64,000 nt of DNA from Candidatus Doudnabacteria bacterium. GTDB taxonomy: Bacteria > Patescibacteriota > Doudnabacteria > UBA920. Made by a program: the position numbers and the translations under genes. The stretch spans positions 21,347 to 85,346 of the forward strand of contig JACRDK010000004.1 of the NCBI GenBank assembly GCA_016218585.1. Direction: 5' to 3'. Shown here one piece after another: positions 3,257-48,680 of this stretch. Position 1 is the first letter of the stretch; every line of letters begins with the position of its first letter. The notes below the pieces were generated by a model that did not search any database, was not told the DNA's origin, and saw only the letters and a program-made list of their open reading frames with translations.

Positions 3257-3318
3257 ACAAAATTAATTTAAGATACTAATCTACTAATTTATGCTAATGA
3301 TACTAACTCGGCTTTAAT

Positions 3319-3858: not shown

Positions 3859-3968
3859 AAAATCGCTGAATGATGCGGAACTTAACGCGGACTATCGCGG
3901 AAAGAACCACAACTTGTTAATTAAATTTCTGCGTACTTCCGCGTTATCTTCCGCGTGTTTCCGCGTTG
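3859..3968. repeat. Intergenic repeat family R1, copy 2
   Basis: See copy 1. Confidence 0.85.
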
Positions 3969-4292
3969 TTAAACTGCTTTACCGCTGGTTCTGGCCATTC
4001 TCTGCTTGCTGCCATTTTCCAAAAAAGTAAATCCAACGCGGGATGGGTTGCCGGAATTCGGGTCGAGCAGCATAACTTTAGAAACATGGAGGGCTGCAAA
4101 AAATGTAACTTTCTTTCCTGGCTCGCCGGCTTTTTTAGACTTTTCAAACCTGGTATGGACATTAACGTTTTCCACCATCACCTTGGAGATTTTGGGTAAA
4201 ACTTTAATAACCTTGCCGGTCTTTCCTTTGTCTTTTCCGGAAATGACTTTTACGGTATCGCCTGTCTTAATTTTTAGTCTGTTATTATTCAT
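3969..4292 (-). CDS. rplX: 50S ribosomal protein L24
   Basis: KIKTGDTVKVISGKDKGKTGKV is the KOW motif. Confidence 0.9.
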   Translation of the reverse strand: MNNNRLKIKTGDTVKVISGKDKGKTGKVIKVLPKISKVMVENVNVHTRFEKSKKAGEPGKKVTFFAALHVSKVMLLDPNSGNPSRVGFTFLENGSKQRMARTSGKAV

Positions 4293-4418
4293 ATCTTTAC
4301 TAAATACTAATTGATACTAATATACTAATCATTAAATGTTGGGTAATCTTTGAGAGTAAGAATTCGTATATTCGCCTGCCTGCCGGTAGGCAGGTACAAA
4401 TTCGTACTTCGTAAAGTT
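4293..4418. repeat. Intergenic repeat family R2 (ACTAAT and GAATTCGTA words). Copies also lie at 2963-3061, 3257-3318 (partial), 5378-5483, 5901-6020 and 7373-7482
   Basis: CTTTACTAAATACTAATTGATACTAATATACTAAT...AGTAAGAATTCGTATATTCG[P20]TACAAATTCGTACTTCGTAAAGT. Confidence 0.85.
4375..4394. repeat. 20-bp perfect palindrome P20, CCTGCC(T)ACCGGCAGGCAGG; other copies at 7439-7458, 13399-13418 and 24476-24495
   Basis: Exact copies. Two are inserted into R2 copies (R2 at 5378-5483 lacks it), one is inside the partial tRNA-Leu copy, and one is upstream of tuf. Confidence 0.85.
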
Positions 4419-5377: not shown

Positions 5378-5483
5378 ATCTTTACTAAATACTTATTGAT
5401 ACTAATATACTAATTTTAATCTAAAAGGTAATTTATGGAAGTAAGAATTCGTATATTCGTACAAATTCGTACTTCATAAAGTT

Positions 5484-5900: not shown

Positions 5901-6020
5901 ATCGGTTAAATTTACTATCTTTACTAACTACTAATCGGTACTAATATACTAATCTGTGATTATTAAATTGGTATATTCGTAAAAATTAGTAGTTAGTAAA
6001 GTAAGAGAATTAATTAACAA

Positions 6021-6704: not shown

Positions 6705-6793
6705 AATTTTAGTTAAAAGTTAATCAGGTTAATCAAGTTTATCAAGTCATTTACTTTGCAACTTTATGAACTTGATAACTTTATAAACTCGTT

Positions 6794-7372: not shown

Positions 7373-7482
7373 ATTACTATATTTACTAAATACTAATTTT
7401 AAATGGTTTAAATTTTGGAATAAGAATTCGTATATTCGCCTGCCTGCCGGTAGGCAGGTACAAATTCGTACTTCGTAAAGTG

Positions 7483-7815
7483 TTACTTCTTGCTGTCGTC
7501 TTTGGCGGCGTTAAGCTTGGCCTTTTCGGCTTCGGCTTTGGCTAATTCTTGTTCTTTAGCCATCTTACCACCATGACGGAGGAACTTACGAGTCGGAGAA
7601 AATTCTCCAAGCTTGTGGCCTACCATGTTTTCTGTAACGAATACCGGAACGTGAGTACGGCCGTTATGAACCAGGAAAGTAAAGCCTACAAACTCAGGGG
7701 CAATAGTGCAGGATCTGGACCAAGTTTTAATTTGGGTCTGACCGGCCTTGCCGTTTTGCACTTTCTTTACCACTCTCGGGTCTACGTATGGTCCTTTTTT
7801 TAGTGATCTAGACAT
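7483..7815 (-). CDS. rpsS: 30S ribosomal protein S19 with a C-terminal extension
   Basis: [12 protein letters not shown]...TFLVHNGR. Confidence 0.9.
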
Positions 7816-7900
7816 AAAATCAGTTCTTAAAGTTAATCAAGTTTTAAAGTTTATAAAGTTATGCCGTCCACTTGATGAACTTGATAACTTGATAAGCTTG

Positions 7901-11845: not shown

Positions 11846-13033
11846 CTATTTGATGATTTTAGTAACAACACCAGCGCCTACGGTATGGCCACCTTCGCGA
11901 ATAGCGAATTTGCCTTTTTCTTCCAAAGCGACCGGAGTAATTAATTTCACAACCAACTTTACGGTGTCTCCTGGCATAACCATTTCCTGACCTTCCGGCA
12001 AGGTAACGTCACCAGTAACATCGGTGGTGCGAATATAGAATTGCGGCTTATAACCCTTAAAGAACGGGGTATGGCGTCCGCCTTCTTCTTTGCTCAAAAT
12101 ATATACTTCGGTTTCAAACTCGGTATGAGGAGTAATGGAACCCGGTTTGCACAAAACTTGTCCGCGTTCTACTTCTTCTTTCTTAGTACCGCGGAGCAAA
12201 ATTCCTGCGTTGTCCCCTGCCATACCGCTGTCCAACTGCTTGTTGAACATTTCGATACCGGTAACAACAGTCTTAGTTGTTGGCTTTAAACCAACAATTT
12301 CAATTTCATCGGATAATTTAATTTCACCGCGTTCGATTCTACCGGTAACTACGGTACCGCGTCCTTCAATGGAGAAGATGTCTTCAATCGGCATTAAGAA
12401 CGGTTTGTCGGTTTCGCGCTTCGGATCCGGGATGTAGGTGTCCAAATATTCAACAAGTTTCAAAATGGAACCTTCGCCCATTTCAGAAGTGTCTCCTTCC
12501 AAGGCTTTCAAAGCAGAACCGCGAACAATCGGGGTGTCTTTGCCTGGGAATTCGTATTTGGTCAAAAGGTCGCGAATTTCTTCTTCAACCAATTCCAAAA
12601 GTTCAGCATCCTGAACCATATCGCACTTGTTCATGTAAACAATAATGTAAGGAACACCTACCTGCTTGGCTAACAAAATGTGTTCGCGAGTCTGCGGCAT
12701 AGGACCGTCAGTAGCGGATACAACCAAGATGGCTCCGTCCATTTGAGCAGCACCGGTAATCATGTTCTTGATATAGTCGGCGTGTCCCGGACAGTCAACG
12801 TGGGCGTAGTGGCGCTTAGCGCTTTCATATTCCACGTGAGCAGTGTTAATGGTAATACCACGGGCTTTTTCTTCCGGGGCATTGTCAATGCTGTCGTAGG
12901 CGCGAGCCTTGGCTCCACCAGTTTTAGACAGAACTGTAGTAATAGCAGCAGTAAGGGTGGTTTTGCCGTGGTCAACGTGACCAATGGTACCAACGTTTAC
13001 GTGCGTTTTGCTACGGTCAAATTTGTCTGCCAT
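11846..13033 (-). CDS. tuf: Elongation factor Tu
   Basis: [15 protein letters not shown] and the full-length EF-Tu sequence. Confidence 0.95.
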
Positions 13034-13459
13034 TTGAATTTGCCTTTCTTTCGGAGAATCGGATTGTCGGAGAATCGGAAATAAAGTTTTGGCTTAATTT
13101 TCCGACTTTCTGATTTTTCTGATTTTCCGGGTTGCCCGAGACCCCCTCATCACTAATGCTTATCGATAAGGCATCAGTGCCGAGGGTATCTCTTTCTTTC
13201 CTTACGGAATCCAGGGCATTTGATTAATTAATTTTTACCCGCCTTAAGCTCGAAAGCTTTGGTTAGGGCTAGAACTTATTTTAAAGATATTTTGCCTTGC
13301 TGTCAAACAGCATAATGTGATACTGATATACAAATACATTCGGATGATACTGATAATACCGATTCGCTCTTTGTCAGTTTGTCAGTATCTTTATTAACCC
13401 TGCCTACCGGCAGGCAGGCGTATTATCAGTATTCAAATCTGTATATCTGCATCATAGCT

Positions 13460-13816
13460 CTATAAATCTTCCATATCCATCTTTGGGCCTTCAAAGTCAA
13501 AACTCGGATCTATGACCTCAGCGCGCAAATCCACCCTGGGAAATGCCCGCTCGCTAATTATAACCGGCCCTTTAACCGCCGCCTCGGGAACAGACGGCGC
13601 GGGCGAAACAGGAGCCTCTTCCTGTAATTGCGCATTTAAAATTTCCCTATTTATTTTTTCAACATCCAAAATTTGTTTTTGCAGTTTTCCCAGCAGCAGG
13701 CGCTGATATTCCGCCAGCGGCAAAATTACCAATTGTGTCTCCCCTGTTTCATCAATAACAAAAAACTTGCCTCCATCGGCCTTGGCTAAATTTATAATAT
13801 CCTTTAATGAATTCAT
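13460..13816 (-). CDS. Hypothetical protein; the N-terminus weakly resembles a Phd/YefM-type fold (QLVILPLAEYQRLL)
   Basis: 118-aa ORF; motif similarity only. Confidence 0.35.
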   Translation of the reverse strand: MNSLKDIINLAKADGGKFFVIDETGETQLVILPLAEYQRLLLGKLQKQILDVEKINREILNAQLQEEAPVSPAPSVPEAAVKGPVIISERAFPRVDLRAEVIDPSFDFEGPKMDMEDL

Positions 13817-13951
13817 GATTTTTCTTTCTTAATTTCCCGCCAGGGGCGGGCATTCCCTAATTTCATTCTCATTATACGCCTCTTAGAAAGGCTTTACAAC
13901 TTTCTAAATAATTTGGTATTCTTGGGACTAGAATTTTGCAGGAGGATTGCG

Positions 13952-14320
13952 ATGTTGATTGTTTGTAAGGTGTTTGCTGTTTTGGTTTTTTATCACTCAG
14001 CGTCCTTTATGCATGCTGCCATAAATATGTTAATTTACAGAAACTTACCTAGCAGCGAAAGGAAAACTTCTGGCCCAATAACAAAAGCCTTCCACCTCGG
14101 AATTGCCATTTTGGCAACGACTCTTCTCCCCCCCTCACAAATCACAATACAAGAACTAGCCTTAGCAATTTTGGTTTATGCTGGCACGGCCATCTGGTGT
14201 TTTAACAAGGCAGTGAAGCACGTAAAGGATCAAAAAACGAGAGAGGCAAATGTATTTGGCGGTACTGGGATAGCGTTTATGTCGTTAGTTTTTTTCTTTT
14301 TTGGGTTGTGCTTGGTGTAG
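13952..14320 (+). CDS. Hypothetical membrane protein (about 122 aa, roughly 4 TM helices); start moved to the ATG preceded by AGGAGG
   Basis: gcAGGAGGattgcgATG; a hairpin plus T-run terminator lies at 14353-14400. Confidence 0.5.
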   Translation: MLIVCKVFAVLVFYHSASFMHAAINMLIYRNLPSSERKTSGPITKAFHLGIAILATTLLPPSQITIQELALAILVYAGTAIWCFNKAVKHVKDQKTREANVFGGTGIAFMSLVFFFFGLCLV

Positions 14321-14550
14321 AACCTCCTTACCGCAAAACAAGAACAGCTTTGTGCCGGCGGGTCCGTAAGGACTCCGCCGGCATCATCATTTTTATATTT
14401 TATAAATTGTGCAGATTTGGACGATCGTCAGAATATGTACAAAGATAAAAATGTAAAATACTCTGAAAGCTCTAAATTTAAAACAGGCCAATGCAATCGC
14501 ATTGGCCTGTTTTTATCTGTACTATCTGTTCCCATCCGTAATCCGTGATT

Positions 14551-16671
14551 CTACATACCTTTTCTAACATTGATGCCGGCGCGGGATTCAATAATCTTTT
14601 CCGCTACGTTCTTCGGCACTTCAGCGTAATGGTCAAATTCCATAGTATAGCTGGCTTGACCCTGGGTCATAGAACGCAAGGCTGTGGCGTAACCGAACAT
14701 TTCGGACAACGGCACAAAAGCGTCAATAATCTTTAAGTGCAAGCGGTCAGTCATTTCATTAATCTGAGCGCGTTTGCTGTTTAAGTCTCCGATTACGTCA
14801 CCCATGTTTGTTTCCGGAGTGGTAACTTCAACTTTCATAATCGGTTCCAAAATAATTGGGGTAGCTTTTTTAACAGCATCCTGCAAACCCTTGGAAGCGG
14901 CAATTTTGAAAGCCATTTCCGAGGAGTCAACTTCGTGGTAGCTACCATCGAACACAGCAGCTCTAAAGTCTACCAATGGGTAACCGGCAATAACGCCGTT
15001 TGCGGCAGATTCCTGAATACCTTTGTCGATTGGCTTGATATATTCTTTTGGAATAACACCACCAACAACTTCATCCACGAATTCATAACCCTTGCCGCGC
15101 TCAAGCGGTTCAACGCGAATATAACAATGTCCGTATTGTCCGCGTCCACCAGTCTGGCGAATGTATTTGCTTTCCGCTTCGGCAATCTTCTTAATGGTTT
15201 CCTTGTAAGCTACTTCCGGCTTACCAACGTTAGCTTCCACTTTAAACTCGCGCTTCATGCGGTCAACAATAATTTCCAAGTGCAATTCACCCATACCGGC
15301 AATAATTGTCTGCTGGGTTTCTTCGTTAGTGGAAAGTTTGAAGGTCGGATCTTCTTCAGCCAATTTAGACAAAGCAATGCCCATTTTTTCCTGGTCAGCT
15401 TTGGTCTTCGGTTCAATGGACATGGAAATAACCGTGTCGGCAAACTTGATAGTTTCCAAACGAATCGGCTTTTCTACATCGCACAAAGTATCTCCGGTAA
15501 ATGTTTCTTTTGGTCCCACAAGGGCGCAAATATCTCCGGCAAAAACTTCTTTAACTTCATCGCGCTGGTCGGCACGCATACGGACAATACGTCCAACGCG
15601 TTCTTTGTTGCCGGTGCGGGCGTTAAGAACATAAGAACCGGCTTCCAATTTTCCCGCGTACACGCGGAAGAAACACAAGCGTCCAACGAACGGGTCGGTG
15701 GCAATTTTAAAAGCCAAAGCTGTAAATGGTTCTTCGTCGGAAGGCTTTCTTAAAATTTCCGCATCGGTTTTTAAGTCATGGCCTTTTACCACGCCGCGGT
15801 CAACCGGGGAAGGTAAAAAGTTAACAACGGCGTCAAGAATTTTTTGAACAATAATTCCGCGTCCGTCGCCGCCTAAGACCGGGAAGAATTTTCCGCCCTG
15901 AACGGCTTTGCGAATTGCAACCAAGAATTCATTTTCTGTGAGTTCTTGTCCGCCTAAATATTTTTCCATTAAGGCGTCATCGCTTTCAACTACTTTTTCA
16001 AGCAACTTATGGCGATATTCCTTGGCTTTTTCCAGCATATCGGCCGGCACTTCGCCAACGGTAAACTCTTTGTCGGTAAAATCTTTATAGGTGTAGGACT
16101 TCATATTAATAAGGTCAACTACGCCATTGATATCTTTTTCAAAACCAATCGGCAACTGAATTGGGAAAGCATTCGGGGAAAGGCGCTTATGAATAGAATC
16201 CAAAGACTTATAAAAATCTCCGCCAGTTTGGTTGATTTTGTTAATGAAGCACATGCGAGGCACCTGGTATTTATCGGCCTGGCGCCAAACAGTTTCACTT
16301 TGCGGTTCTACACCCATTTTTCCATCAAAGACAACAACCGCGCCGTCGAGAACGCGCAAACTGCGTTCTACTTCCACGGTAAAGTCCACGTGGCCCGGAG
16401 TGTCAATAATGTTAATTTTGTGCTTAACGTCCCCTGCCAATTTAATAAAGCGGGGGGTCCAGTAGCAGGTAACGGCGGCGGAGGTAATGGTAATACCGCG
16501 CTCGCGTTCCTGTTCCATCCAGTCGGTGGTAGTTTCACCTTCGTGCACCGCGCCAATCTTGTGAATCATACCGGTGTTATACAAAACACCTTCGGTGACG
16601 GTGGTTTTACCGGCATCAATGTGGGCAATAATTCCAATATTGCGGGTTACTTCTATAGGATATTCTCTCAT
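14551..16671 (-). CDS. fusA: Elongation factor G
   Basis: [12 protein letters not shown] and the full 706-aa EF-G sequence. Confidence 0.95.
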
Positions 16672-16864
16672 AAATAAATATTAGATTAGAGATTTAAGAA
16701 TTAAACTTTTATTTTTAATTTTGAAGTTTCCAAAACTTTTGTAACAGTCTATCAAGCTTTTAAAGTTGTAAAGTTTTTCAAGTTTCTACATCCGCTTTAT
16801 GAACTTAACGGACACGGCTAACTTGATAAACTTTACAAACTTGATGAACTTTTAACTCGTCGCT

Positions 16865-17431
16865 TTAGCGGCGGCCAAAACGCGCAAAGTGGGCAAAAGC
16901 TTTGTTGGCTTCAGCCATACGGTGTACATCTTCGCGTTTCTTCATAGCGCCACCGGTCTTGTTGTATGCATCCATAATTTCACCGGCAAGTCTTTGCGCC
17001 ATAGGAGAACCTTTTTTGGCGCGGCAGGCGGCCAATAACCAGCGCATGGCTAAAGTGGTGCGGCGAGGTTCCATAACTTCCATTGGTACCTGATAGTTAG
17101 CACCGCCAATGCGGCGGGATTTTAATTCCATAATTGGGGAAACATTTTTTAAAGCAATATCAAAAACCTGGCGGCCTTCCAACACTGCCGGCTTTTCTTC
17201 TTTTGCCGGTTTTTCTCCGGTTGTTTTAGAAGCCGTTGTGGCTGTAGCCGGGGCGGTTAGAGTAGCGGCTTTTTCGCCGACTATGTCTAATGCATCGTAA
17301 AAAATCTTGCGGGCAACATTCTTCTTGCCGCGTTCCATTAAATAGTTAATGAATTTTGCATATTTAACCGAGCCGTAACGAGGGTCCGGTTCTGGAACGT
17401 GTTTATCGTAACTTCTGGATTTTCTTGGCAT
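16865..17431 (-). CDS. rpsG: 30S ribosomal protein S7 with an Ala/Thr/Lys-rich internal insertion of about 35 aa
   Basis: MPRKSRSYDKHVPEPDPRYGS. The protein is 188 aa against about 156 aa normally. Confidence 0.9.
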   Translation of the reverse strand: MPRKSRSYDKHVPEPDPRYGSVKYAKFINYLMERGKKNVARKIFYDALDIVGEKAATLTAPATATTASKTTGEKPAKEEKPAVLEGRQVFDIALKNVSPIMELKSRRIGGANYQVPMEVMEPRRTTLAMRWLLAACRAKKGSPMAQRLAGEIMDAYNKTGGAMKKREDVHRMAEANKAFAHFARFGRR

Positions 17432-17519
17432 ATGTTTATTCCACTAATTCACGAATTCTCACTAATTTCACGAATACCACTTAGTGTGATTCGTGATGAT
17501 TAGTGAATTCGTGGATAAA
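17432..17519. repeat. Repeat family R6 (CACGAAT words) immediately downstream and upstream of rpsL; second copy at 17934-18019, about 90% identical over about 75 bp
   Basis: CACTAATTTCACGAATA.CACTTAGT.T.ATTCG.GATGATTAGTGAATTCGTGGATAAATTATT occurs on both sides of rpsL. Confidence 0.85.
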
Positions 17520-17933
17520 TTATTTTCTCTTCGTTCCGTATTTAGAACGGCTTCTCTTTCTCCCGTCGACTCCGAGAGTATCTAGCTTTCCGCGAACAAT
17601 GTGATAACGGACACCGGGAAGATCTTTTACACGTCCGCCGCGGATCATTACTACGCTGTGTTCCTGTAAGTTGTGGCCAATACCCGGGATGTAAGCAATA
17701 ACTTCCATTCCGTTGGTAAGTTTGACCTTAGCCACTTTACGCAAAGCCGAGTTCGGCTTTTTAGGCGTTGTGGTATAAACCTTTAAACAGACACCGCGCA
17801 TAAACGGGGCGCCGGTTTTTATGAACAATGTCTTGTTCTTTATCAAGTTCTGCCTGCGCATTAACGCCGGAGACTTGCTTTTGGTTTTAAGAGGGCTTCT
17901 GCCTCTGCGAACCAATTGATTGATTGTTGGCAT
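17520..17933 (-). CDS. rpsL: 30S ribosomal protein S12
   Basis: [12 protein letters not shown]...[10 protein letters not shown]. Confidence 0.95.
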
Positions 17934-28000: not shown

Positions 28001-28034
28001 TTTCTTAAATCTTATATCCTAAATCTTAAATCTA

Positions 28035-29852: not shown

Positions 29853-29969
29853 AATATTCAGATTTACGAATAGAACGAATCTACAGATACCTACAGATTC
29901 AAATTGTGTTGCCTTGGAAAATTAACATCTGTAGTTATCTGTAAATCTGTTTTCATCTGTATATCGGAA

Positions 29970-32861
29970 TTATATAACAAGGTTTATTAATCTGTTTGGC
30001 ACAAAAATTACCCGCTTAACGCTTTCTCCGACCAATGCCTGTTTAACTGCGTCCATTGCCATAACCTGAGCTTGCACTGCTTCCTGAGTCGCGCCGGCCG
30101 CAACGGTAAGTTTGGCTTTTACCCTGCCATTAATTTGCACAATTATTTCTACTGACGATTCAATAACCAATGCGGGATCAAAATTTGGCCAACTTAAATA
30201 CTGTAATGAGCCGACTTTCTTTTTTTCAACTTTGCTAACTTTCTCGTTTAATTCTTCCGCTATGTGCGGAGCAAATGGATACAACAAAATCAAGAATGTT
30301 TTAATGGATTCTAAGGTAATAAATTCATCCTTAATCTCATTATGAAATTCCATAAAAGCGGAAATGGAAGTGTTAAAACGGAAATTTTCCAAATCCTCGG
30401 TAATTTTCTTTATTAATTTATTCAACGCCCTCTGCACCTTATCAGTATCTTTTGCCCTTGATTCCTGATTCCTGATTCCTGATTCTTGTTGGTGGGGCGC
30501 TTCCGCAATTTCATTTACCCAGGTCCAAACTCTGTCTAAAAATCTTCTCACCCCAACAACGCCCTGGTCATTCCACGACACCATGGACTCGTGAGGCCCT
30601 AAAAACATTTCGTACATTCTTAGGGTATCGGCTCCATATTTTTTTACAACCTCATCAGGATTTACCACATTGCCCCGGCTCTTGGACATTTTCTCGCCAT
30701 CCGGGCCCAAAACAATTCCGTGCGGATGGCGTTTTTTATACGGTTCAGACACAGTAACCAAACCCTGGTCATACAAAAATAAATTCCAAAACCTGCTGTA
30801 AAGCAAATGCAAGGTTGTGTGCTCCATGCCGCCCAAATATACGTCTACCGGTTGCCAGTACTTTAACTTTTTCATATCGGCAAATTTGGTTTTATTTTTT
30901 GGGTCAGCATAGCGCAGCCAATACCAAGAACTGCCGGCCCATTGCGGCATAGTGTTAGTTTCCCGCCAAGCGGTCTTTTTACATTTTGGGCACTTGGTTT
31001 TTACCCAGCTTTTAATATCGGCCAATGGAGATTCTCCGTTGCCCGTTGGTTCATATTTTTTTACATTCGGCAGCTTTACCGGCAAATCCTTTTCCGGAAC
31101 CGGCACAATACCGCAATCTTCACAATGAATTAACGGAATTGGCTCGCCCCAATATCTTTGCCTGCTAAAAACCCAATCGCGCAGTTTATATTGAACGGTT
31201 AACTTGCCAAACTCCCCGCCCATTTTTGTTATTGCTTCTTCTGTTTTAAGTCCGTCAAATTTTTCAGAATTAATTACCACTCCGCTTTCCACCAGGGCTT
31301 TTGGCCCCGTCTTATACAAATCCCAAAAATGTTTAAACACCGCGCCCTTAATAAAAGCGGCCACGGATTTTTCACTTACCCAAACCGGTTTATGTTTGGC
31401 CAGTTCTTCTCCCACAACTTCTGTTTTATCTTCGTTTACCAAATCAAACACAAAACCTTTAAAATAAGCGTGGCGATTTTCTTTTTTTAACAAATGGTAA
31501 AACTTTTCATGCGCTTGCCCAAGTTCCGCAACAAGTTTTATATTTTTATAGCCGGTTTCTTCCGCCACTTCTCTCTGGCAGGCAACAATGTAATCTTCGC
31601 CTTTTTCCACCCCGCCGGTTACAAAAGTTTTCCAGGCTTCAGAAACCTGCCACTGCAAGCACAAAAATTCATTGGTTTTTGGATTGCGAACCAAACAAAC
31701 CACCGCATTTCTAGGAACGAACGGTAATTCAGGCTTGGGAGGTTCGTCTTTAGAAACAAACTCCGGAGCCACAACCTGGACTATTGGCAATTTAAATTTT
31801 GTTGCAAATTCAAAATCGCGAACATCGTGCGCCGGCACGGCCATAATTGCTCCCGTTCCATAATGGCCAAGAACATAGTCTGCCACCCACACCGGAATTT
31901 CCTGTTTGGTTGCTGGGTTAATTGCCTTAATTCCTTTTAACTCAACTCCGGTTTTTTCTTTTCCTTCGGCCGTGCGGTCCATTTCCGCCTTCTCTTTTGC
32001 CTTAGCAATATACTTTGCGACCTCGTCGTAATTCTTGATTCTTGATTCTTGATTCTTAATTAAAGGGTGCTCCGGCGCCACCACCATATAACTCGCGCCA
32101 AAAATAGTATCCGGTCGGGTGGTGAAAACCTCAATTGGAAATTGGAAATTGGAAATTGGAAATTTAATAATCGCTCCCGTGCTCTTTCCAATCCAATTCT
32201 CCTGTTGCAGCTTTACCGCTTCAGGCCATTCGGGCAAATTTTTTAATCCTTCCAATAATTTTTCCGCGTAAGCGGTTATGCGCAAATACCACTGCCGCAG
32301 CTCTTTCTTTTCCACGATAGTGCCGCAGCGTTCGCATTTGCCGTCTATTACTTCCTCGTTAGCCAATCCGGTTTTGTCTTTTGGACACCAATTAATCAAG
32401 CCGGTAGCTTCATAAGCCAACCCTTTTTTGTAAAATTGCAAAAACAGCCACTGCGTCCATTTATAATATTCCGGGTCGGTAGTGTTTATTTCCCTGCTCC
32501 AATCAAAACTCAAACCCCAACTTTGAATTTGTTTCTTGGCGTTGGCAACATTTTTTTTGGTAGTAATGGAAGGATGCACGCCCATTTTTATGGCATAGTT
32601 TTCCGCAGGCAGACCAAAAGCATCCCAACCAATTGGAAACATAGTCTCAAAACCTTTTAACCTGTTAAATCTGCTGTAAACATCGCCCGCCACATAAGGG
32701 CGCAAATGCCCCATATGCAAACCTGCGCCGGACGGATAAGGAAATTCAACCAACACAAACTTTTTTGGTTTTTTGGCCGACTCTTTGGCGATAAAAGTTT
32801 TATTTTTTGCCCAAAATGCTTGCCACTTGCCTTCTATTTTTTTATGGTCGTACTTTTGCAT
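29970..32861 (-). CDS. leuS: Leucyl-tRNA synthetase
   Basis: HMGH, KMSKS and the CP1 domain; 963 aa. Confidence 0.95.
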   Translation of the reverse strand: MQKYDHKKIEGKWQAFWAKNKTFIAKESAKKPKKFVLVEFPYPSGAGLHMGHLRPYVAGDVYSRFNRLKGFETMFPIGWDAFGLPAENYAIKMGVHPSITTKKNVANAKKQIQSWGLSFDWSREINTTDPEYYKWTQWLFLQFYKKGLAYEATGLINWCPKDKTGLANEEVIDGKCERCGTIVEKKELRQWYLRITAYAEKLLEGLKNLPEWPEAVKLQQENWIGKSTGAIIKFPISNFQFPIEVFTTRPDTIFGASYMVVAPEHPLIKNQESRIKNYDEVAKYIAKAKEKAEMDRTAEGKEKTGVELKGIKAINPATKQEIPVWVADYVLGHYGTGAIMAVPAHDVRDFEFATKFKLPIVQVVAPEFVSKDEPPKPELPFVPRNAVVCLVRNPKTNEFLCLQWQVSEAWKTFVTGGVEKGEDYIVACQREVAEETGYKNIKLVAELGQAHEKFYHLLKKENRHAYFKGFVFDLVNEDKTEVVGEELAKHKPVWVSEKSVAAFIKGAVFKHFWDLYKTGPKALVESGVVINSEKFDGLKTEEAITKMGGEFGKLTVQYKLRDWVFSRQRYWGEPIPLIHCEDCGIVPVPEKDLPVKLPNVKKYEPTGNGESPLADIKSWVKTKCPKCKKTAWRETNTMPQWAGSSWYWLRYADPKNKTKFADMKKLKYWQPVDVYLGGMEHTTLHLLYSRFWNLFLYDQGLVTVSEPYKKRHPHGIVLGPDGEKMSKSRGNVVNPDEVVKKYGADTLRMYEMFLGPHESMVSWNDQGVVGVRRFLDRVWTWVNEIAEAPHQQESGIRNQESRAKDTDKVQRALNKLIKKITEDLENFRFNTSISAFMEFHNEIKDEFITLESIKTFLILLYPFAPHIAEELNEKVSKVEKKKVGSLQYLSWPNFDPALVIESSVEIIVQINGRVKAKLTVAAGATQEAVQAQVMAMDAVKQALVGESVKRVIFVPNRLINLVI

Positions 32862-34892: not shown

Positions 34893-36422
34893 CTAAATTC
34901 TTGGAAATAATCTTGGAATGTTCCCCGATGTTAAATCTTTTAACGCTAAAAGTATTTGCCCTGCTGTATTAGGAAGAAACGGCTTTAAGCTCTGTGCAAT
35001 ACCTTCTAACTCACTAAGCAAAAACTCGATGTCCTTTTTTGCCGCGGCTTCATCAACCTTAATTTTTTTAAATGGCTCTTCTTTTTGAATATACTGGTCG
35101 CAAGCTTGGATTTTTTTCCAAACTTCGTCCGTTGCTTTGGCTAATTCATAATGATTCAGCAACTCGTTTCCCTGATTCATAATTCTTAACTCATACTTCG
35201 TGATTCCCGCATTAACCGCCATTTTCAAAATTCTGCTGGTTAAATTTCCAATTCCATTAGCAAGTCCGGCGTTATAGGTTTCCACAAAATGTTCCCAGGT
35301 GTAATCCCCGTCTTCAAAGGTTGGAATTTCCCGCAACAAATAATAGCGCAAGGCATCAGTTGCCTGCTCTTTCGTTAAGCCCAAACTTTCCAGCTTGGCC
35401 AAAATTTCATATGGGTCGGCAACATTGCCGAGAGACTTGGACATTTTTTGCCCGCCGCTGGTAATAAACCCATGAATTATTATTTGTTTGGAGTTTGTCA
35501 ATCCAGCTGACATTAACATCGCCTGCCACATTGCCGATTGTTGGCGAAGGTTGTCTTTTCCGGCAATTTGTACCCCGGGCCAGAATTCAGCAAATAGGAA
35601 GTCGGAAGTCGGAAGTCGGTTCGAGTCCGATCCTCCGGTTATCCGGTTATCCGATTTTTCCGATTCAGGCCAACCCAAAGTGGAAATATAGTTAATGAGC
35701 GCATCAAACCACACATACATTACATGAGCTTCGTCTCCGGGCACCGGAACCCCCCAGGACATTTTTTCTTTTAAACGCGATACGCTAAAATCTTCCAGGC
35801 CTTTTTTCACAAATTCTTTTATTTCATTAAACCGAAAATCGGGAATAACAAAGTCCGGTTGTTTTTCGTATAAATCTAACAACTGTTGCTGGTACTTAGA
35901 CCAACGAAAAAAATAATTTTCTTCTTCTCTTATTTCCAACTCTAAATTGGGATGAAGCGGGCATTTGCCGTCTACCAATTCACTTTCGGTTTTTTCCAGC
36001 TCACAACCAACGCAATATTTAATTTTATAATTCTTTTTATAAATATCGCCGTTCTTCTCGCATCTCTTCCAAAATTCCTGGGCCGCGGCAATATGATTTG
36101 CATCTGTAGTTCTAACAAAATGAATGTCCGGGCTAATACCCAAAGCAGGCATAAGTTGTTTAAATTTTTCGGCATATTCGTCTACATAAGCCTGAACATC
36201 CTGTTTTTTACTTTCTGCTTTCTGAAAGATTTTTTGTCCGTGTTCATCTGTTCCCGTATTAAAAAACACCTCTTGTCCTAAAATTTCTTTATGATATCTC
36301 GCGATTACGTCGGCTTGAACCATTTCTAAAGCAAACCCTAAATGAGGGTCAGAATTAACATAAGGCAACGTTGTTGTAATGTAAAACTTATTTTTGTTCA
36401 TAATCGTATAAAACTCTCGCAA
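34893..36422 (-). CDS. metG: Methionyl-tRNA synthetase with an in-frame insertion of about 20 aa made of tandem short repeats
   Basis: KMSKS and the LGWPE...FWP region. The insertion SEKSDNRITGGSDSNRLPTSD is encoded by GGAAGTCGG x3 and CCGGTTATC x2 (35595-35665). Confidence 0.9.
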   Translation of the reverse strand: MREFYTIMNKNKFYITTTLPYVNSDPHLGFALEMVQADVIARYHKEILGQEVFFNTGTDEHGQKIFQKAESKKQDVQAYVDEYAEKFKQLMPALGISPDIHFVRTTDANHIAAAQEFWKRCEKNGDIYKKNYKIKYCVGCELEKTESELVDGKCPLHPNLELEIREEENYFFRWSKYQQQLLDLYEKQPDFVIPDFRFNEIKEFVKKGLEDFSVSRLKEKMSWGVPVPGDEAHVMYVWFDALINYISTLGWPESEKSDNRITGGSDSNRLPTSDFLFAEFWPGVQIAGKDNLRQQSAMWQAMLMSAGLTNSKQIIIHGFITSGGQKMSKSLGNVADPYEILAKLESLGLTKEQATDALRYYLLREIPTFEDGDYTWEHFVETYNAGLANGIGNLTSRILKMAVNAGITKYELRIMNQGNELLNHYELAKATDEVWKKIQACDQYIQKEEPFKKIKVDEAAAKKDIEFLLSELEGIAQSLKPFLPNTAGQILLALKDLTSGNIPRLFPRI

Positions 36423-44312: not shown

Positions 44313-47294
44313 TTACTGTGGCGATCCGCCTTCGTTGAGTTTGCTGGCTCTATTAAATATTCCCAAAGTTGAACTTCCGGTAAAACTATTTACGCCGTCG
44401 CCCGTTGCTGTCGACAAGCAGAAAATATTAGCACCAGAATTCGAATTCGCGTAATACGAAGCCCAAATATTATAATATCCATTATCTAAGGCTGAAATTC
44501 CTGTAGCATAAGGAATTGCCGCGCCGGTGGTTGTGCCAACGGTGCCATTTTGAATGTCAAAATATACCCAGCTGCCGCAAGTGGAAATAAAGGACAATGC
44601 GGCCCAAGTTCTGCCGTTTGGTTTTACTTCCGCTGAAACTGTATAGAGCGCTTGGCTTTTTACGTAACTGCCCAAAGCATAATTTACCCGGTGAATTAAG
44701 TTCTGCGTATTTTCCATAAATGAGTTTGCGGTTCTTGTTCCTACGCCTTGCACCGCCCAGGTGCCTTGGGTCATATCTACATTTGCGGTTGAAGGGAATA
44801 ATTGCGCAATTGTTGCGGGAGTAGTATTTAACTCCTGGCTTAACACTGTCCTGACTGTTGGCAAAGAATAATATGTTGTGGTTGCAATAACATATTTAAA
44901 ATTCTGTCCGAGATAGCTGTTATAATCGGCGCTAAAATTGGCAACGCTAACTCCGCCTAAGCTATAAATTGTTTGCGTGCCGTCGTTAACTGTTGGGGAA
45001 TTCCAGGTATTGCCGCGAGAGCTCAAAGAAGAGCCCGTGCCGGACATTGTAATTCCGCCAATTAACGTTGAACTGGCAATTGTTAACGCTGCGTTAGTTC
45101 CGCTTAAATACGCGGCGGTTCCGGTTCCGGTTAGAGTAACGTTGCTCATGCTAATAATCTCCCCTGTTGTATTAGTTCCGGCCAGAGCTCTGCCTCCATT
45201 TGTCATTTGGCAGCTAGAATTAGAAATGGTTGTGGTGCCAACTCCTGCCTGGAAACAAGCAGTGCTCGAAGAGTCCGCGGGAGAATTGGTGATTGTGGTA
45301 TTTTTAATTATAAAGTTGGAAACTTCATTAGCCGCCGGACCTCTCATATTATCTGAGGTTAAATTATCAACTGTAACGGTGCCGAAAGTGTCGGGCGTTC
45401 CACCGGTATGGGAAATAAAAGAAGAGGCGCCTGCCACATAAGTGGTTGAATCATTATAAGCGGTACTATTCCTAACTTCGCCGCTGCCGCCGTTGGCAAA
45501 GAACGAACCCGGGTGCAATACGTACATGCCATAGCCGCCATTATGAGCCACGGAGTCAGTAACCAAAGAGCCGTCTGAAAAATAATATTGATGGCTATAA
45601 CTTTCTTCCGATAAACAATTGGAAATATATGCGTTAGTAAAGGCGCGGATTGAACCGTCGTTTGCCTGAACTCTTCTAGCATGAAGGCCAATATACCTGG
45701 TGCCATCTTTGGAACTGTCTACCGCTCTGGCTCTTGCCGTATATTCATACTGACTGCCGTTTGAAGAAGGATTCCCGGTTGTTGCGTGCACATAAATTGT
45801 CGGCGAAGTTGTACTAGCGTTGCCAATATAAAAACTTCCGGCTATAGAATCACAACTTGAAGTTGACGTCTGCATAGAAAGACGGGATCCATTTTCAAAA
45901 ACCCAAATTTGGTTAGGGTTGGCGTTATCAGATGGCAAAACCGCTTTATAGCAATTGGTTGTCCCGGCAGTAAGGCTCCAGGCAGACGAAGAAATAATGT
46001 CAGAGGCATCAACCAATGGCTTAGCTCCGGATCCATAAGATTGAACGGTCATGTTATCTCTGGGAACTGTAAGAGTTTCTCTCCAGGCAGAGTCGGTAAC
46101 CAAATTCCATGTATTAAGAGGCGCGGAGGCATCTACAGTTTGCAGGCGGGAAATTGTTTTTACAGCCTGCGCCGGAGATAACCCGGAGTTGCTGTCATTG
46201 CCGTTAACGGAATCTACATAATAAGTTGGCGTAGGGTTTGTATAATCTGCCGAGGTTACCGTATTACTGCTTGCGTCAGTGGATTTAATATGAAAATGGT
46301 AGGCGGTTGTGGTTGCTAATCCGGTTAAAACCAGCGAATGGGAAGTTACCATCGATGCAGACGAAGTTGAAAATCCATACGAAGTTGTTGTTCCATATTC
46401 AATTAACGAATTAGATAATTCGTCGGTAGTCCAGGTTATTTGTAAACTGGTTGCTGTTGGCGTACTGGTAGCAACCGAAGAGATTACCGGCGCGGTTGTA
46501 TCTGGCGTAGAGCCGGAAGACCCTCCGGAAGATGAGCCGCCTCCCCCGCCACCACTGGCATAACCGCCGCTGTAAGTAGGCGGGGGGTTATTATTTCCGG
46601 TTGTATTATTGGAAGATGAACCATTATTGGCTACGGTGGTTCTGGTTTCCACCACTCCGCCAACAGGCAAAGCTAAATCTGCTTCATTAGCAGGGACCAC
46701 TGTTTTAAAATCATTATCTATATGCCATGCATTATAGACGTCCAAAGAAGGATAAGGATAGAGTGTTCCGTTATTTATCCAATAAATCGTGCCGTTGCTT
46801 AAAATATCAACTCCGTTTAAATGAGCGGATGATGAATCGAAAATATTAGAACCTTTTGGCAGCAGCTGTTCTTCCGGATTAGTTACCAAAAGTACGGACG
46901 TAAATCTAAAGCCGAGCCCAAGAAAAACTTCTGCGGAAGTAAAAGCGCGGCGCGTGCCATCGGACACCAAATAAACGGTTTTATCTTCGGCAGATTTAAT
47001 TAAAGCTCCGTTATTTGGAAGCAAAAGACTTCCCTGCGGCAAGCTTAAATCTTCGGCCGTTGCCGCGGCTGCATCCTTAAATTCAAAACCATAGGAAAAT
47101 AAAATTCCGGGACTGGTTACTCCTTGCAGCGTATTGTTTTGGATTAAATAAAATGTTCCGTTGTTATTTATAAGCCTTATTGGATTTGATTTTGGAAAAG
47201 TTAGCGTCTCCCCCATAACTCGCATAGGAAAAGGAGTAAAAATAAAAATCGCTGTAATTATCAAATAAAAAAAAGACCGCTTTAAAATATCCAT
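44313..47294 (-). CDS. Large secreted surface protein: signal peptide, Gly/Ser-rich linker, Fn3-like domain, beta-helix-like repeats
   Basis: Signal peptide; GGGGGGSSSGGSSGS linker; ITWTTDE...EYGTTTSYG Fn3-like segment; NxT/S-rich repeats. Confidence 0.6.
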   Translation of the reverse strand: MDILKRSFFYLIITAIFIFTPFPMRVMGETLTFPKSNPIRLINNNGTFYLIQNNTLQGVTSPGILFSYGFEFKDAAAATAEDLSLPQGSLLLPNNGALIKSAEDKTVYLVSDGTRRAFTSAEVFLGLGFRFTSVLLVTNPEEQLLPKGSNIFDSSSAHLNGVDILSNGTIYWINNGTLYPYPSLDVYNAWHIDNDFKTVVPANEADLALPVGGVVETRTTVANNGSSSNNTTGNNNPPPTYSGGYASGGGGGGSSSGGSSGSTPDTTAPVISSVATSTPTATSLQITWTTDELSNSLIEYGTTTSYGFSTSSASMVTSHSLVLTGLATTTAYHFHIKSTDASSNTVTSADYTNPTPTYYVDSVNGNDSNSGLSPAQAVKTISRLQTVDASAPLNTWNLVTDSAWRETLTVPRDNMTVQSYGSGAKPLVDASDIISSSAWSLTAGTTNCYKAVLPSDNANPNQIWVFENGSRLSMQTSTSSCDSIAGSFYIGNASTTSPTIYVHATTGNPSSNGSQYEYTARARAVDSSKDGTRYIGLHARRVQANDGSIRAFTNAYISNCLSEESYSHQYYFSDGSLVTDSVAHNGGYGMYVLHPGSFFANGGSGEVRNSTAYNDSTTYVAGASSFISHTGGTPDTFGTVTVDNLTSDNMRGPAANEVSNFIIKNTTITNSPADSSSTACFQAGVGTTTISNSSCQMTNGGRALAGTNTTGEIISMSNVTLTGTGTAAYLSGTNAALTIASSTLIGGITMSGTGSSLSSRGNTWNSPTVNDGTQTIYSLGGVSVANFSADYNSYLGQNFKYVIATTTYYSLPTVRTVLSQELNTTPATIAQLFPSTANVDMTQGTWAVQGVGTRTANSFMENTQNLIHRVNYALGSYVKSQALYTVSAEVKPNGRTWAALSFISTCGSWVYFDIQNGTVGTTTGAAIPYATGISALDNGYYNIWASYYANSNSGANIFCLSTATGDGVNSFTGSSTLGIFNRASKLNEGGSPQ

Positions 47295-47432: not shown

Positions 47433-48680
47433 TTAAATTTTTGGTTCGGTGTAATCTTTGTAATCTCTAACCATATCTTCAAAATAATCATAACTAATTG
47501 CGGTGCGAATTTTTTTCATCAGATTTAAATAGAAACGCAAATTATGCATTGTTGCCAGGCGAATGGCCAGAGGCTCGCCTGTGGCGAACAAATGTCGCAA
47601 ATAACTGCGCGTATGGTTTAAACACAAATAACAATCACAGGTGTTATCTATTGTTGTAAAATCTTCTTTATATTTTTCCAAACGAATATCTATAGTAGAA
47701 TAACCTTCCTTTTTTGTGTCATCCCGGCCTTCGAGCCGGGATCCAGGATTCACTGCACTGGATTCCGGATACCCCTCGGATGCACTTGGGCTTCCGGAAT
47801 GACAAACAGCCGAAACATACAAACGCCCATGTCGTGCTTCGCGGGTAGGAATAACACAATCAAAAGTATCGCAGCCTCTGCTGGCGGCCTGAACTATATC
47901 AAATGGAGTTCCAACGCCCAAAAGATGCTTTGGTGAATTTTCCGGCAAATGGGGAATTGCGGCCTCAACTGCTTTCATCATTTCCTCGTGCGGCTCCCCT
48001 ACTGCCACGCCGCCAATGGCAAAAGCTTCAAAACCAAGAGCCACCATATCTTTGGCGGATTGTTCTCGCAAATCCGGGAATGAAGCGCCCTGAACTATGC
48101 CCCAAAGTTTTTGTCCGGGGTTTATAGGGTCGCCGTCTATAATTATTTTTTGATATTCTCTAATTGCCCGCTCGGCCCAGCGCTTGGTAAGCGCAATGGA
48201 TTCCTTGCTTCGTTCATACTCAAAAGGATAGCCGGGAAAATCGTCTAAAATTAGCGCAATGTCGCTTCCTAAATTCGCCTGAATGTCTACCGACTTTTCC
48301 GGAGACAAAATTTCTGTTTTGCCGTCCAAGTCAAACTGAAACACCACGCCGCCTTCCCCTACTTTTCTCATTTTGGCCAAAGAGAAAACTTGAAATCCTC
48401 CCGAGTCCGTAAAAATCGGCCCTTTCCAATTCATAAATTCGTGCAAGCCGCCGGCTTTATAAATAAGGCCGTCTCCCGGCCTTTGCCAGAGATGGTAGGT
48501 ATTGGCTAAAATAATATCCGCACCCCAGAATTTTAATTCTTCGGAAGTTATTGATTTTACCGCACCCTTTGTGCCAATTGGCAAAAACGCCGGAGTTTGA
48601 ATATCTCCGTGAGCGGTATGAATAACACCCGTTCTAGCGCGAGAGCCGGGATCGGATTTTAAAATTTCAAAATATGGCAT
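47433..48680 (-). CDS. tgt: Queuine tRNA-ribosyltransferase with an in-frame GC-rich palindromic insertion of about 40 aa
   Basis: Zinc site CxCxxC...H. The insertion VSAVCHSGSPSASEGYPESSAVNPGSRLEGRDDTKKEGYS is encoded at 47706-47830 and contains the hairpin TCCCGGCcttcgaGCCGGGA. Confidence 0.85.
   Translation of the reverse strand: MPYFEILKSDPGSRARTGVIHTAHGDIQTPAFLPIGTKGAVKSITSEELKFWGADIILANTYHLWQRPGDGLIYKAGGLHEFMNWKGPIFTDSGGFQVFSLAKMRKVGEGGVVFQFDLDGKTEILSPEKSVDIQANLGSDIALILDDFPGYPFEYERSKESIALTKRWAERAIREYQKIIIDGDPINPGQKLWGIVQGASFPDLREQSAKDMVALGFEAFAIGGVAVGEPHEEMMKAVEAAIPHLPENSPKHLLGVGTPFDIVQAASRGCDTFDCVIPTREARHGRLYVSAVCHSGSPSASEGYPESSAVNPGSRLEGRDDTKKEGYSTIDIRLEKYKEDFTTIDNTCDCYLCLNHTRSYLRHLFATGEPLAIRLATMHNLRFYLNLMKKIRTAISYDYFEDMVRDYKDYTEPKI

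Follow-up and report, generated by a model that had tools for sequence, protein, structure and literature searches.

The metG gene of a Candidatus Doudnabacteria bacterium, which encodes methionyl-tRNA synthetase (MetRS), carries an in-frame insertion built from short tandem repeats. The gene lies in a stretch of 64,000 nt (hereafter the window; contig JACRDK010000004.1, positions 21,347 to 85,346). The insertion is best read as a decayed hairpin whose arms are tandem arrays, made of CGGA-containing 8-9-mers on the 5' side and of (CGACTTC)3 on the 3' side. It belongs to a large set of period-7-9 arrays in this genome; most of these are intercistronic, and a smaller number sit in frame within loops of housekeeping proteins. 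The account that we favour, with modest confidence, is that the segment represents neutral or selfish repeat DNA without a function, which has evolved by slippage under a filter for reading frame and polarity within a permissive, disordered loop of the enzyme. The features that define the locus are as follows.

34893-36422, minus strand: metG (methionyl-tRNA synthetase), open reading frame (ORF) of 509 codons, assigned from the database match P0001 and from matches to MetRS structures
35598-35654, minus strand: in-frame insertion of 57 nt or 19 residues (SDNRITGGSDSNRLPTSDF), from orthologue and structure alignment
35597-35619, plus strand: tandem array GGAAGTC x3.3, period 7, copies 100% identical, from Tandem Repeats Finder (TRF)
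35634-35653, plus strand: tandem array TCCGGTTA x2.5, period 8, 100% matches, from TRF
35615-35631, strand given as ".": central mini-hairpin GTCGG TTCGAGT CCGAT, read from sequence and folding

Repeat structure of the metG insertion

Solved MetRS structures match the metG product by sequence with E-values down to 1e-96, and an AlphaFold2 model of the product compares with Thermus MetRS (1woy) at a TM-score of 0.80. A database protein from a Ca. Doudnabacteria metagenome-assembled genome (P0001, 174 kb contig) has 502 aa and is 100% identical to the window MetRS; the true start of metG is therefore probably the ATG at 36401, giving the same 502 aa. Relative to insertion-free orthologues (LGWPEDEKTFGEFWPG), the window gene has an excess of 19 residues (57 nt), which bears out the roughly 20 extra residues reported by a first-pass annotation made from the sequence alone. 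Positions 35598-35666 encode the peptide ESEKSDNRITGGSDSNRLPTSDF. Because ESEK can align with native EDEK, the boundaries are uncertain by about 9 nt, and the insert reaches at most about 66 nt when the ambiguous flank is counted. It remains in frame, contains no stop codon and has a GC content of 0.56 versus 0.40 for the gene. The coding-strand sequence of the loop is tgg cct gaa tcg gaa aaa tcg gat aac cgg ata acc gga gga tcg gac tcg aac cga ctt ccg act tcc gac ttc cta ttt gct gaa ttc tgg.

The first-pass annotation had described two 9-mer units, present three and two times; TRF instead resolves units of period 7 and period 8, the described 9-mers overlapping by two bases. On the coding strand, the GGAAGTC array forms the 3' arm, (CGACTTC)n. 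The TCCGGTTA array runs on as degenerate TTWTCCGRT units, spaced 8-9 nt apart, to 35664 on the plus strand, and the whole of 35634-35664 forms the 5' arm on the coding strand, with five CGGA blocks. The 16-mer GGAAGTCGGAAGTCGG has 3 matches in the window versus 0.23 expected and the 19-mer CCGGTTATCCGGTTATCCG has 2 versus 0.01 expected, all of them within the insert. A search of the 64 kb window with up to 3 mismatches found no second copy of the units. The outer units blend into native codons, for instance at ...TCC GAT TTC TGG and CAG TTT. Terminal inverted repeats were not found at the insert, and inspection of its flanks showed no target-site duplication or flanking direct repeat.

The repeat-built nature of the insert is thus upheld by perfect arrays above chance, while the small hairpin that had also been proposed is present but weak in this copy (z-scores of -1.5 to -3.1). 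As RNA, the sense strand folds at -26.6 kcal/mol (z -1.5); as DNA, the plus strand gives z -3.1; and the insert folded alone gives z -2.9. No exact inverted seed of at least 6 nt was found in it, and the sole clean stem is GTCGG/CCGAT around TTCGAGT. Within this central part, GGTTCGAGTCC (35618-35628, plus strand, antisense to metG), with a 5-bp stem, resembles a tRNA T-arm. A tRNA origin of the insert was rejected, given that ARAGORN and Rfam returned no match and that the central loops of relatives are unrelated; the likeness is probably a coincidence.

A hypervariable loop in MetRS orthologues

Solved structures are gapped at the insert: Brucella MetRS (4dlp) has a 19-residue gap opposite it, and Aquifex MetRS (2csx) is about 24 residues shorter at this position. 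Escherichia coli MetRS also differs in length at this loop. In the AlphaFold2 model, residues 246-265 of the 502-aa protein, exactly ESEKSDNRITGGSDSNRLPT, have a predicted local distance difference test score (pLDDT) below 50 and no secondary structure, while the rest of the enzyme is modelled confidently. This places the insert in a loop, as had been anticipated, and the surface loop that it forms in MetRS is predicted to be disordered.

The 120 best database homologues, all from Doudnabacteria or Patescibacteria and 62-100% identical, were aligned. The stretch between LGWP and FxxFW is hypervariable among them. Counted against the 11-residue baseline PEDEKTFGEFW, the extra length is zero in 35 proteins, at least 5 residues in 81 and at least 15 residues in 34. 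The length spectrum is peaked, with 7 extra residues in 13 proteins, 8 in 15, 17-19 in 16 and 23-24 in 8, and extra lengths of 1-5 or 10 residues are very scarce. The peak at 7-8 residues follows from the unit size, since three 7- or 8-nt units amount to 21 or 24 nt. Ser (2.9x) and Gly (1.6x) are over-represented in the insert peptides and Trp, Cys, Tyr, Ile and Leu under-represented, and neither a frame break nor a stop was met in any case (120 proteins, about 150 loci). An equally long, non-repetitive loop, which would have counted against the first-pass reading, was not seen in relatives; these are either insert-free or carry other repeat-built inserts that differ greatly in length and sequence. 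The segment is accordingly a genuine in-frame insertion and not a loop inherited from a common ancestor.

Turnover of inserts at the orthologous metG site

DNA was retrieved for about 165 orthologous metG loci. Inserts at the orthologous site consist of tandem 7- or 8-nt units, frequently arranged as a pair of inverted arrays that fold into strong hairpins, and equivalent repeat-built inserts occur in independent assemblies from NCBI, ENA, JGI and Logan. Three relatives (L161, L162 and L163) carry the TCGGA/TCCGA family of the window. The insert of L163, (TCGGAAG)5 ... (TTCTCCGA)4, is a near-perfect hairpin (-44.6 kcal/mol, z -5.4), and that of L162, (TCGGAAAA)4 ... (TCCGAnn)4, is similarly strong (-39 kcal/mol, z -6.8). 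In L161, (TCAGAGAA)3 is followed by TCCGA units and the hairpin has decayed on the sense strand. The window and L161 inserts have 61 of 78 nt in common, and the 3' arm unit of the window is the exact complement of the 5' arm unit of L163 (TCGGAAG). Sequence comparison thus shows homology of the window insert to the stronger TCGGA/TCCGA hairpin arrays that related Doudnabacteria carry at the same codon position.

Other relatives carry unrelated units at this site, including (AATCAGCA)4 in L082, (AAGAGAC)4 in L083, an (ATGAAGC)n/(TTTCAAG)n hairpin, (AGTGACG)4, (AGTGGAC)4 and CT-rich/GA-rich hairpins. Direct arrays without a palindrome are found in L082, L083, L006, L010 and L011. Units of 7-8 nt are therefore gained, lost and replaced at one and the same site. 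Outside the loop, the five nearest MetRS share 90, 86, 86, 84 and 80% identity with the window protein. At the insertion site they show, respectively, a CT/GA hairpin, a TCGGA hairpin, an AATCAG array, no insert and a CT/GA hairpin. Because these five differ in insert state, with four states among them, the loop must have been remodelled much faster than the enzyme.

Long inserts at the metG site fold far better than shuffled sequences (z -3 to -7), while short ones are direct arrays free of hairpins. No consistent asymmetry exists between sense and antisense folding, and RNA-level selection on the hairpin was rejected because the sense strand folds better in just 17 of 31 inserts. These data bear on the proposal that the insert is functional, whether as an adaptive loop contacting tRNA or a partner, as a regulatory mRNA hairpin acting on translation or decay, or as a slippage-prone contingency switch. 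All three insert-bearing enzymes (MetRS, LeuRS and TGT) bind tRNA, an insert of at least 5 residues is kept in 81 of the 120 orthologues, the hairpins of relatives are very stable (z -5 to -7), and perfect 7-nt repeats could in principle shift the frame. Against a function stand the 35 insert-free orthologues, the lack of conservation of sequence, length and insert type among close relatives, the predicted disorder of the peptide, the absence of a folding strand preference together with the decayed sense-strand hairpin of L161, and the weak hairpin of the window copy. Moreover, in a synthetase that is essential and single-copy, a frameshift switch would be lethal and not regulatory. We therefore regard a functional insert as improbable.

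Period-7-9 arrays across the window

The metG insert belongs to a much larger population of arrays. With at least 2.8 copies required, the window holds 32 tandem arrays versus a mean of 1.65 (maximum 4) in 20 dinucleotide shuffles, and 27 of the 32 have a period of 7, 8 or 9, where about 1 would be expected by chance. An independent core-spacing scan recovered 33 loci in the window versus 1-7 in shuffles, and the same TRF settings gave no array in 50 kb of E. coli K-12. Array density falls from 4.2 per 10 kb in the window to 3.1 in close relatives and 1.1 at other Patescibacteria loci. This excess also bears on the suggestion that no special repeat biology is involved and that the insert merely extends the loop in one lineage, as loops ordinarily may, or stems from an assembly artefact. 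Loop length does vary among MetRS generally, as Aquifex and Brucella differ here; however, the tandem copies are perfect and well above chance, the genome-wide array excess rules out a one-off event, and the recurrence of equivalent inserts in assemblies from four independent sources speaks against an artefact. Such an explanation is very improbable.

Non-coding DNA, which makes up 12.6% of the sequence, holds 17 of the 27 period-7-9 arrays (p 1e-9). Many of the intergenic arrays are paired in inverted orientation and form hairpins; such pairs occupy spacers of the ribosomal-protein and str operons, namely L22/S3, L2/S19 and S7/EF-G, and the region upstream of EF-Tu. Three of these hairpins, composed of ATCAAGTT/AACTTGAT units and here termed family A, align over most of their length and constitute a dispersed family. 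A fourth, of the TCGGA/TCCGA family, lies directly upstream of the EF-Tu gene and is alike at 58 of 77 nt to the metG insert of L163 (z 12 versus shuffles). Coding arrays occur in frame in LeuRS (29970-32861), and also in the AP endonuclease and Sua5 genes; the close relative L165 has arrays at the same positions that are related but different. The idea that a wider set of such sequences is tolerated inside essential genes is thus supported by MetRS, LeuRS and TGT.

6705-6790, minus strand: family A copy 1, inverted-array hairpin (ATMAAGTT)n...(AACTTGAT)n, L22/S3 spacer
7812-7900, minus strand: family A copy 2, L2/S19 spacer
16745-16860, minus strand: family A copy 3, S7/EF-G spacer
13040-13132, minus strand: intergenic hairpin, TCGGA/TCAGA...TTCTCCGA (TCCGA) family, directly upstream of the EF-Tu gene (tuf, 11846-13033)
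30459-30485, minus strand: in-frame heptamer array GAATCAG x3.9 in LeuRS, peptide ESGIRNQES
32031-32061, minus strand: in-frame heptamer array AAGAATC x4.4 in LeuRS, peptide LIKNQESRIKN, directly 3' of the conserved APEHP motif
32133-32164, minus strand: in-frame heptamer array AATTTCC x4.6 in LeuRS, peptide KFPISNFQFPI
4298-4329, 5913-5953 and 7375-7395, also 5389-5411 and 3276-3298: (ATTAGTAT)n arrays

The array units are heterogeneous, with dozens of differing units of 7, 8 or 9 nt and only a few families recurring 2-4 times. A single common unit vocabulary was rejected: the top 6-mers of 174 arrays are merely AT-rich, and no universal motif emerged.

The LeuRS loci of relatives offer further observations. 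In L165 (1197 aa; 13128-16721), L162 and L163, an alpha/beta-hydrolase domain of about 180 aa (Pfam Ser_hydrolase) is inserted in LeuRS and flanked by the array-encoded peptide KNQESGIKN, while at exactly that site the window LeuRS (963 aa) has nothing but the heptamer array KFPISNFQFPI. The LeuRS of L162 is split into three ORFs (12666-15772, long-read contig), with breaks at A-rich homopolymer runs. Array frameshifts were rejected as the cause, since the breaks fall at homopolymers and not at arrays, and they are probably sequencing errors.

Several intergenic arrays have distinctive positions. The (ATTAGTAT)n arrays lie on the gene-sense strand directly 5' of the start codons of minus-strand genes in the ribosomal-protein cluster, and an (AGATTTA)n array (28003-28033) stops 5 nt short of an ATG; both recall the TAACTGA repeats of Beggiatoaceae, which have been proposed as translational regulation sites. 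Two similar direct arrays of ACGCGGAA-type units, at 1750-1815 and 3925-3975, have the tail TAACGCGGAAGTACGCAGAAAT in common. Both are intergenic, stand upstream of genes on the minus strand and could represent operator or promoter repeats. An intergenic hairpin with an 18-nt period and ATTCCACTAATTTCACGA units (17430-17520, -29.7 kcal/mol) lies downstream of the S7 gene region, and an intergenic direct (ACAGATNN)4 array (29920-29972) adjoins LeuRS upstream.

The tgt insertion

An insertion analogous to that in metG had also been proposed in tgt. It exists and is in frame; however, it is built differently.

47717-47804, minus strand: tgt insertion of 88 nt, GC 0.60, in frame, from orthologue comparison and inverted-repeat search

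The tgt insert is bounded by imperfect 11-nt terminal inverted repeats (10/11 nt), TGTCATTCCGG ... CCGGGATGACA, and adds 32 residues relative to the shortest orthologues and 20 relative to the close relative L165. It lies inside the TGT loop RHGRLY...EGY, which is hypervariable in 120 orthologues, spanning 26-120 residues over the stretch measured, with 58 in the window protein. The ends of the insert recur in L168 (peptide end ...SRFRGND) and in several other orthologues; a second copy was not found in the window, and no target-site duplication is evident. The insert is therefore real but of another kind than that of metG, and its sequence resembles a transposable element of the miniature inverted-repeat type (MITE) or a repetitive extragenic palindromic (REP) element.

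Recurrent peptides are also seen in the TGT loop (orthologues P0129, P0131, P0145, P0149, P0150, P0215, P0216, P0224 and P0232). The conserved peptide DPPSPRLRRTAPD is found there in many Doudnabacteria, and other families, such as NPSASAALGISPQEERGLQSPSPFEERVGERLQ and ...PPPEGGRLGGGD, recur as well; these peptides probably represent dispersed GC-rich repeats that are translated. An ORF of 993 aa (44313-47294, minus strand) without a Pfam match separates tgt from the gene of a class II synthetase. It is missing from the otherwise syntenic L165 and has a (CGGTTC)2.8 array encoding LTGTGTA.

Comparison with known repeat systems

Rickettsia palindromic elements (RPEs) consist of repeat DNA that sits in frame within unrelated housekeeping genes of Rickettsia, where they are translated and compatible with the host fold (PMC10969869). 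The metG insert shares with them an in-frame insertion at a tolerated site of a housekeeping ORF in a small-genome bacterium; the first-pass annotation had drawn the analogy from its repeat-built, hairpin-forming nature. RPEs, however, measure about 100-150 bp and form conserved-peptide families of tens of copies (44 in R. conorii), whereas the metG insert has 57 nt of 7-8-nt tandem units that change unit by unit, with one related hairpin upstream of tuf and no second copy of its own units in 64 kb. Palindromy is feeble in the window copy and strong in its L162 and L163 homologues. In view of its length, the lack of terminal inverted repeats or a duplication, the merging of outer units into native codons and the stepwise change of 7-8-nt units, which is the behaviour of a slippage-driven minisatellite, the RPE analogy is not supported for metG. 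An RPE or MITE analogy is a better fit for the tgt insert with its 11-nt terminal inverted repeats.

Known dispersed heptamer arrays are the short tandemly repeated repetitive (STRR) sequences of cyanobacteria, TAACTGA of Beggiatoaceae and cyanobacteria, and GGGAATC of Xanthomonas; they comprise 2-6 or more copies at many loci, mostly intergenic, often 5' of start codons or in ribosomal-protein operons, and occasionally in ORFs (PMC4679880, PMC4692102). The window shows the same layout of few-copy units of about 7 nt at many, mostly intergenic loci (27 arrays in 64 kb). In contrast, each known system employs one unit or a few throughout the genome, CCCCAGT or TAACTGA for example, whereas the window has many, of 7, 8 and 9 nt, often paired as inverted arms, and some arrays lie mid-gene in essential synthetases rather than at ORF ends.

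The tandem repeats of Borgs, which are extrachromosomal elements of Methanoperedens, encode disordered protein regions, and their unit lengths within ORFs are always divisible by three (10.1101/2022.05.18.492195). The window arrays are likewise perfect, fast-evolving and locus-specific, occur both between genes and in ORFs, and give rise to rapidly evolving, polar and disordered regions without a counterpart in homologues. They differ in that the coding units have 7-8 nt, so that all three frames are read and only the total is divisible by three, and in that Borg repeats are direct rather than inverted pairs.

REP elements and their paired form (REPINs, REP doublets forming hairpins) are palindromes of 20-40 bp with conserved GTAG or CGTC tips and an association with REP-associated tyrosine transposases (RAYTs). 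The window hairpins resemble MITEs, REPs and REPINs as small dispersed hairpin-forming repeats that are frequent between genes of one operon, and the tgt insert has the terminal inverted repeats of a MITE. The metG insert differs, lacking terminal inverted repeats and a target-site duplication and having internally periodic arms; GTAG or CGTC tips are not evident in it, and neither a transposase nor a RAYT was found among the 20 window ORFs scanned. The metG case unites features of the RPE, heptamer-array and Borg systems, with many 7-9-nt units, frequent inverted pairing and a location in internal synthetase loops, and literature searches on the Candidate Phyla Radiation and Patescibacteria retrieved no description of such repeats.

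Origin of the insertion and implications

Under the slippage account favoured here, arrays would grow, shrink and homogenise by slipped-strand mispairing, a process that hairpin-forming arms would assist. In coding DNA, variants would survive only if their total length is a multiple of three, they contain no stop codon and their residues are polar; such a filter would account for both the concentration of inserts in one loop and the clustering at 7-8 residues (3 x 7 or 3 x 8 nt). Translation of the insert would then yield a flexible loop rich in Ser and Gly, of no benefit and little harm to MetRS. Slipped-strand mispairing under a frame and polarity filter fits the stepwise unit changes, the perfect local copies and the quantised lengths. 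That the segment has no function is suggested by its absence from a third of the orthologues, by its unconserved sequence, length and type, by its predicted disorder and by the lack of a folding strand bias; we infer that it is neutral for the enzyme. The first seed may have arisen from local sequence or have been copied from another hairpin locus, and local growth is favoured because the outer units merge into native codons. A native palindrome was rejected as the seed: the codons of W-P-E (TGG CCN GAR) and F-W-P (TTY TGG CCN) could be reverse complements, but they match at a mean of 5/9 nt over 147 loci, and insert-bearing loci do not score higher (4.0 versus 5.0).

Several observations weigh against this account. 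Plain slippage leaves unexplained why the units have 7-9 nt instead of 1-4 nt and why arrays are so often paired in inverted orientation. Insert types are patchy on the MetRS tree, and insert families cluster only weakly on it (identity of about 0.74 within families versus 0.69 in random sets); replacement or re-insertion is therefore as plausible as gradual divergence. Unit families also recur: the ATCAAGTT hairpins of family A stand at three separate loci, the metG inserts of relatives have a look-alike in the TCGGA hairpin upstream of tuf, and (TCGGAAG)n-type peptides (SEVGSRKSE) occur in the TGT loop of other genomes, all of which point to copying between loci. Recurring hairpin families and patchy insert types together make such copying, by mobility or gene conversion, a serious rival.

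In its strict form, this rival holds that the insert is a decayed, small, non-autonomous mobile palindromic element (RPE-, MITE- or REPIN-like) that entered by in-frame transposition, the loop being hit repeatedly by differing families. It would explain the dispersed hairpin families (three copies of family A, and TCGGA in metG and upstream of tuf), the four insert states among the five closest relatives, the elevated GC content of the insert relative to its gene, and a tgt insert that has terminal inverted repeats and homologues in several TGT orthologues. It also draws on the GC-rich palindrome GGCCCGCCTCCGCCGAGGCTACGGCGGGCAAGCC, which is found at the same MetRS site in distant Patescibacteria. 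On the other side, no further copy of the metG units turned up in the 64 kb when up to 3 mismatches were allowed, and the insert is only 57 nt long and lacks terminal inverted repeats, an inverted seed of at least 6 nt and a visible target-site duplication. Its outer units merge with native codons, orthologues differ stepwise in their units and copy number, and many inserts (L082, L083, L006, L010 and L011) are direct arrays without a palindrome. The lack of a transposase concerns the 20 window ORFs scanned, a small part of the genome. On balance, we consider transposition of such an element rather unlikely, and slippage the better account of the metG insert.

The GGCCCGCCTCCGCCGAGGCTACGGCGGGCAAGCC palindrome is an observation in its own right. 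It occurs in the MetRS loop of L003, L005, L020, L029, L053, L067 and L074, where it encodes ASAEATAGKP or SFAKTSEGKP, and a related peptide, FAEATADKP, is present in one TGT loop (P0150). Judged from its sequence, it looks like a widely dispersed REP-like element.

A broader possibility, which we put forward tentatively, is that Doudnabacteria, and to a lesser extent other Patescibacteria, harbour an undescribed class of elements, namely hairpins whose arms are tandem 7-9-nt arrays. Such elements would be made or copied by a lineage-specific process, either a mobilising or templating activity or a replication-repair defect, and would fill operon spacers and repeatedly colonise the loops of MetRS, LeuRS and TGT, thereby creating disordered segments. 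The arrays may be the mutational signature of a particular replication or repair deficit in ultra-small bacteria, or a new, very small selfish element. Either way, conserved essential enzymes in streamlined genomes would keep gaining new disordered segments, and the reading-frame filter is directly visible in the length spectrum, as clusters at 3 x 7 and 3 x 8 nt. Such loops inflate the apparent divergence in marker-gene alignments of Patescibacteria, and the arrays could act as strain-typing loci in metagenomes.

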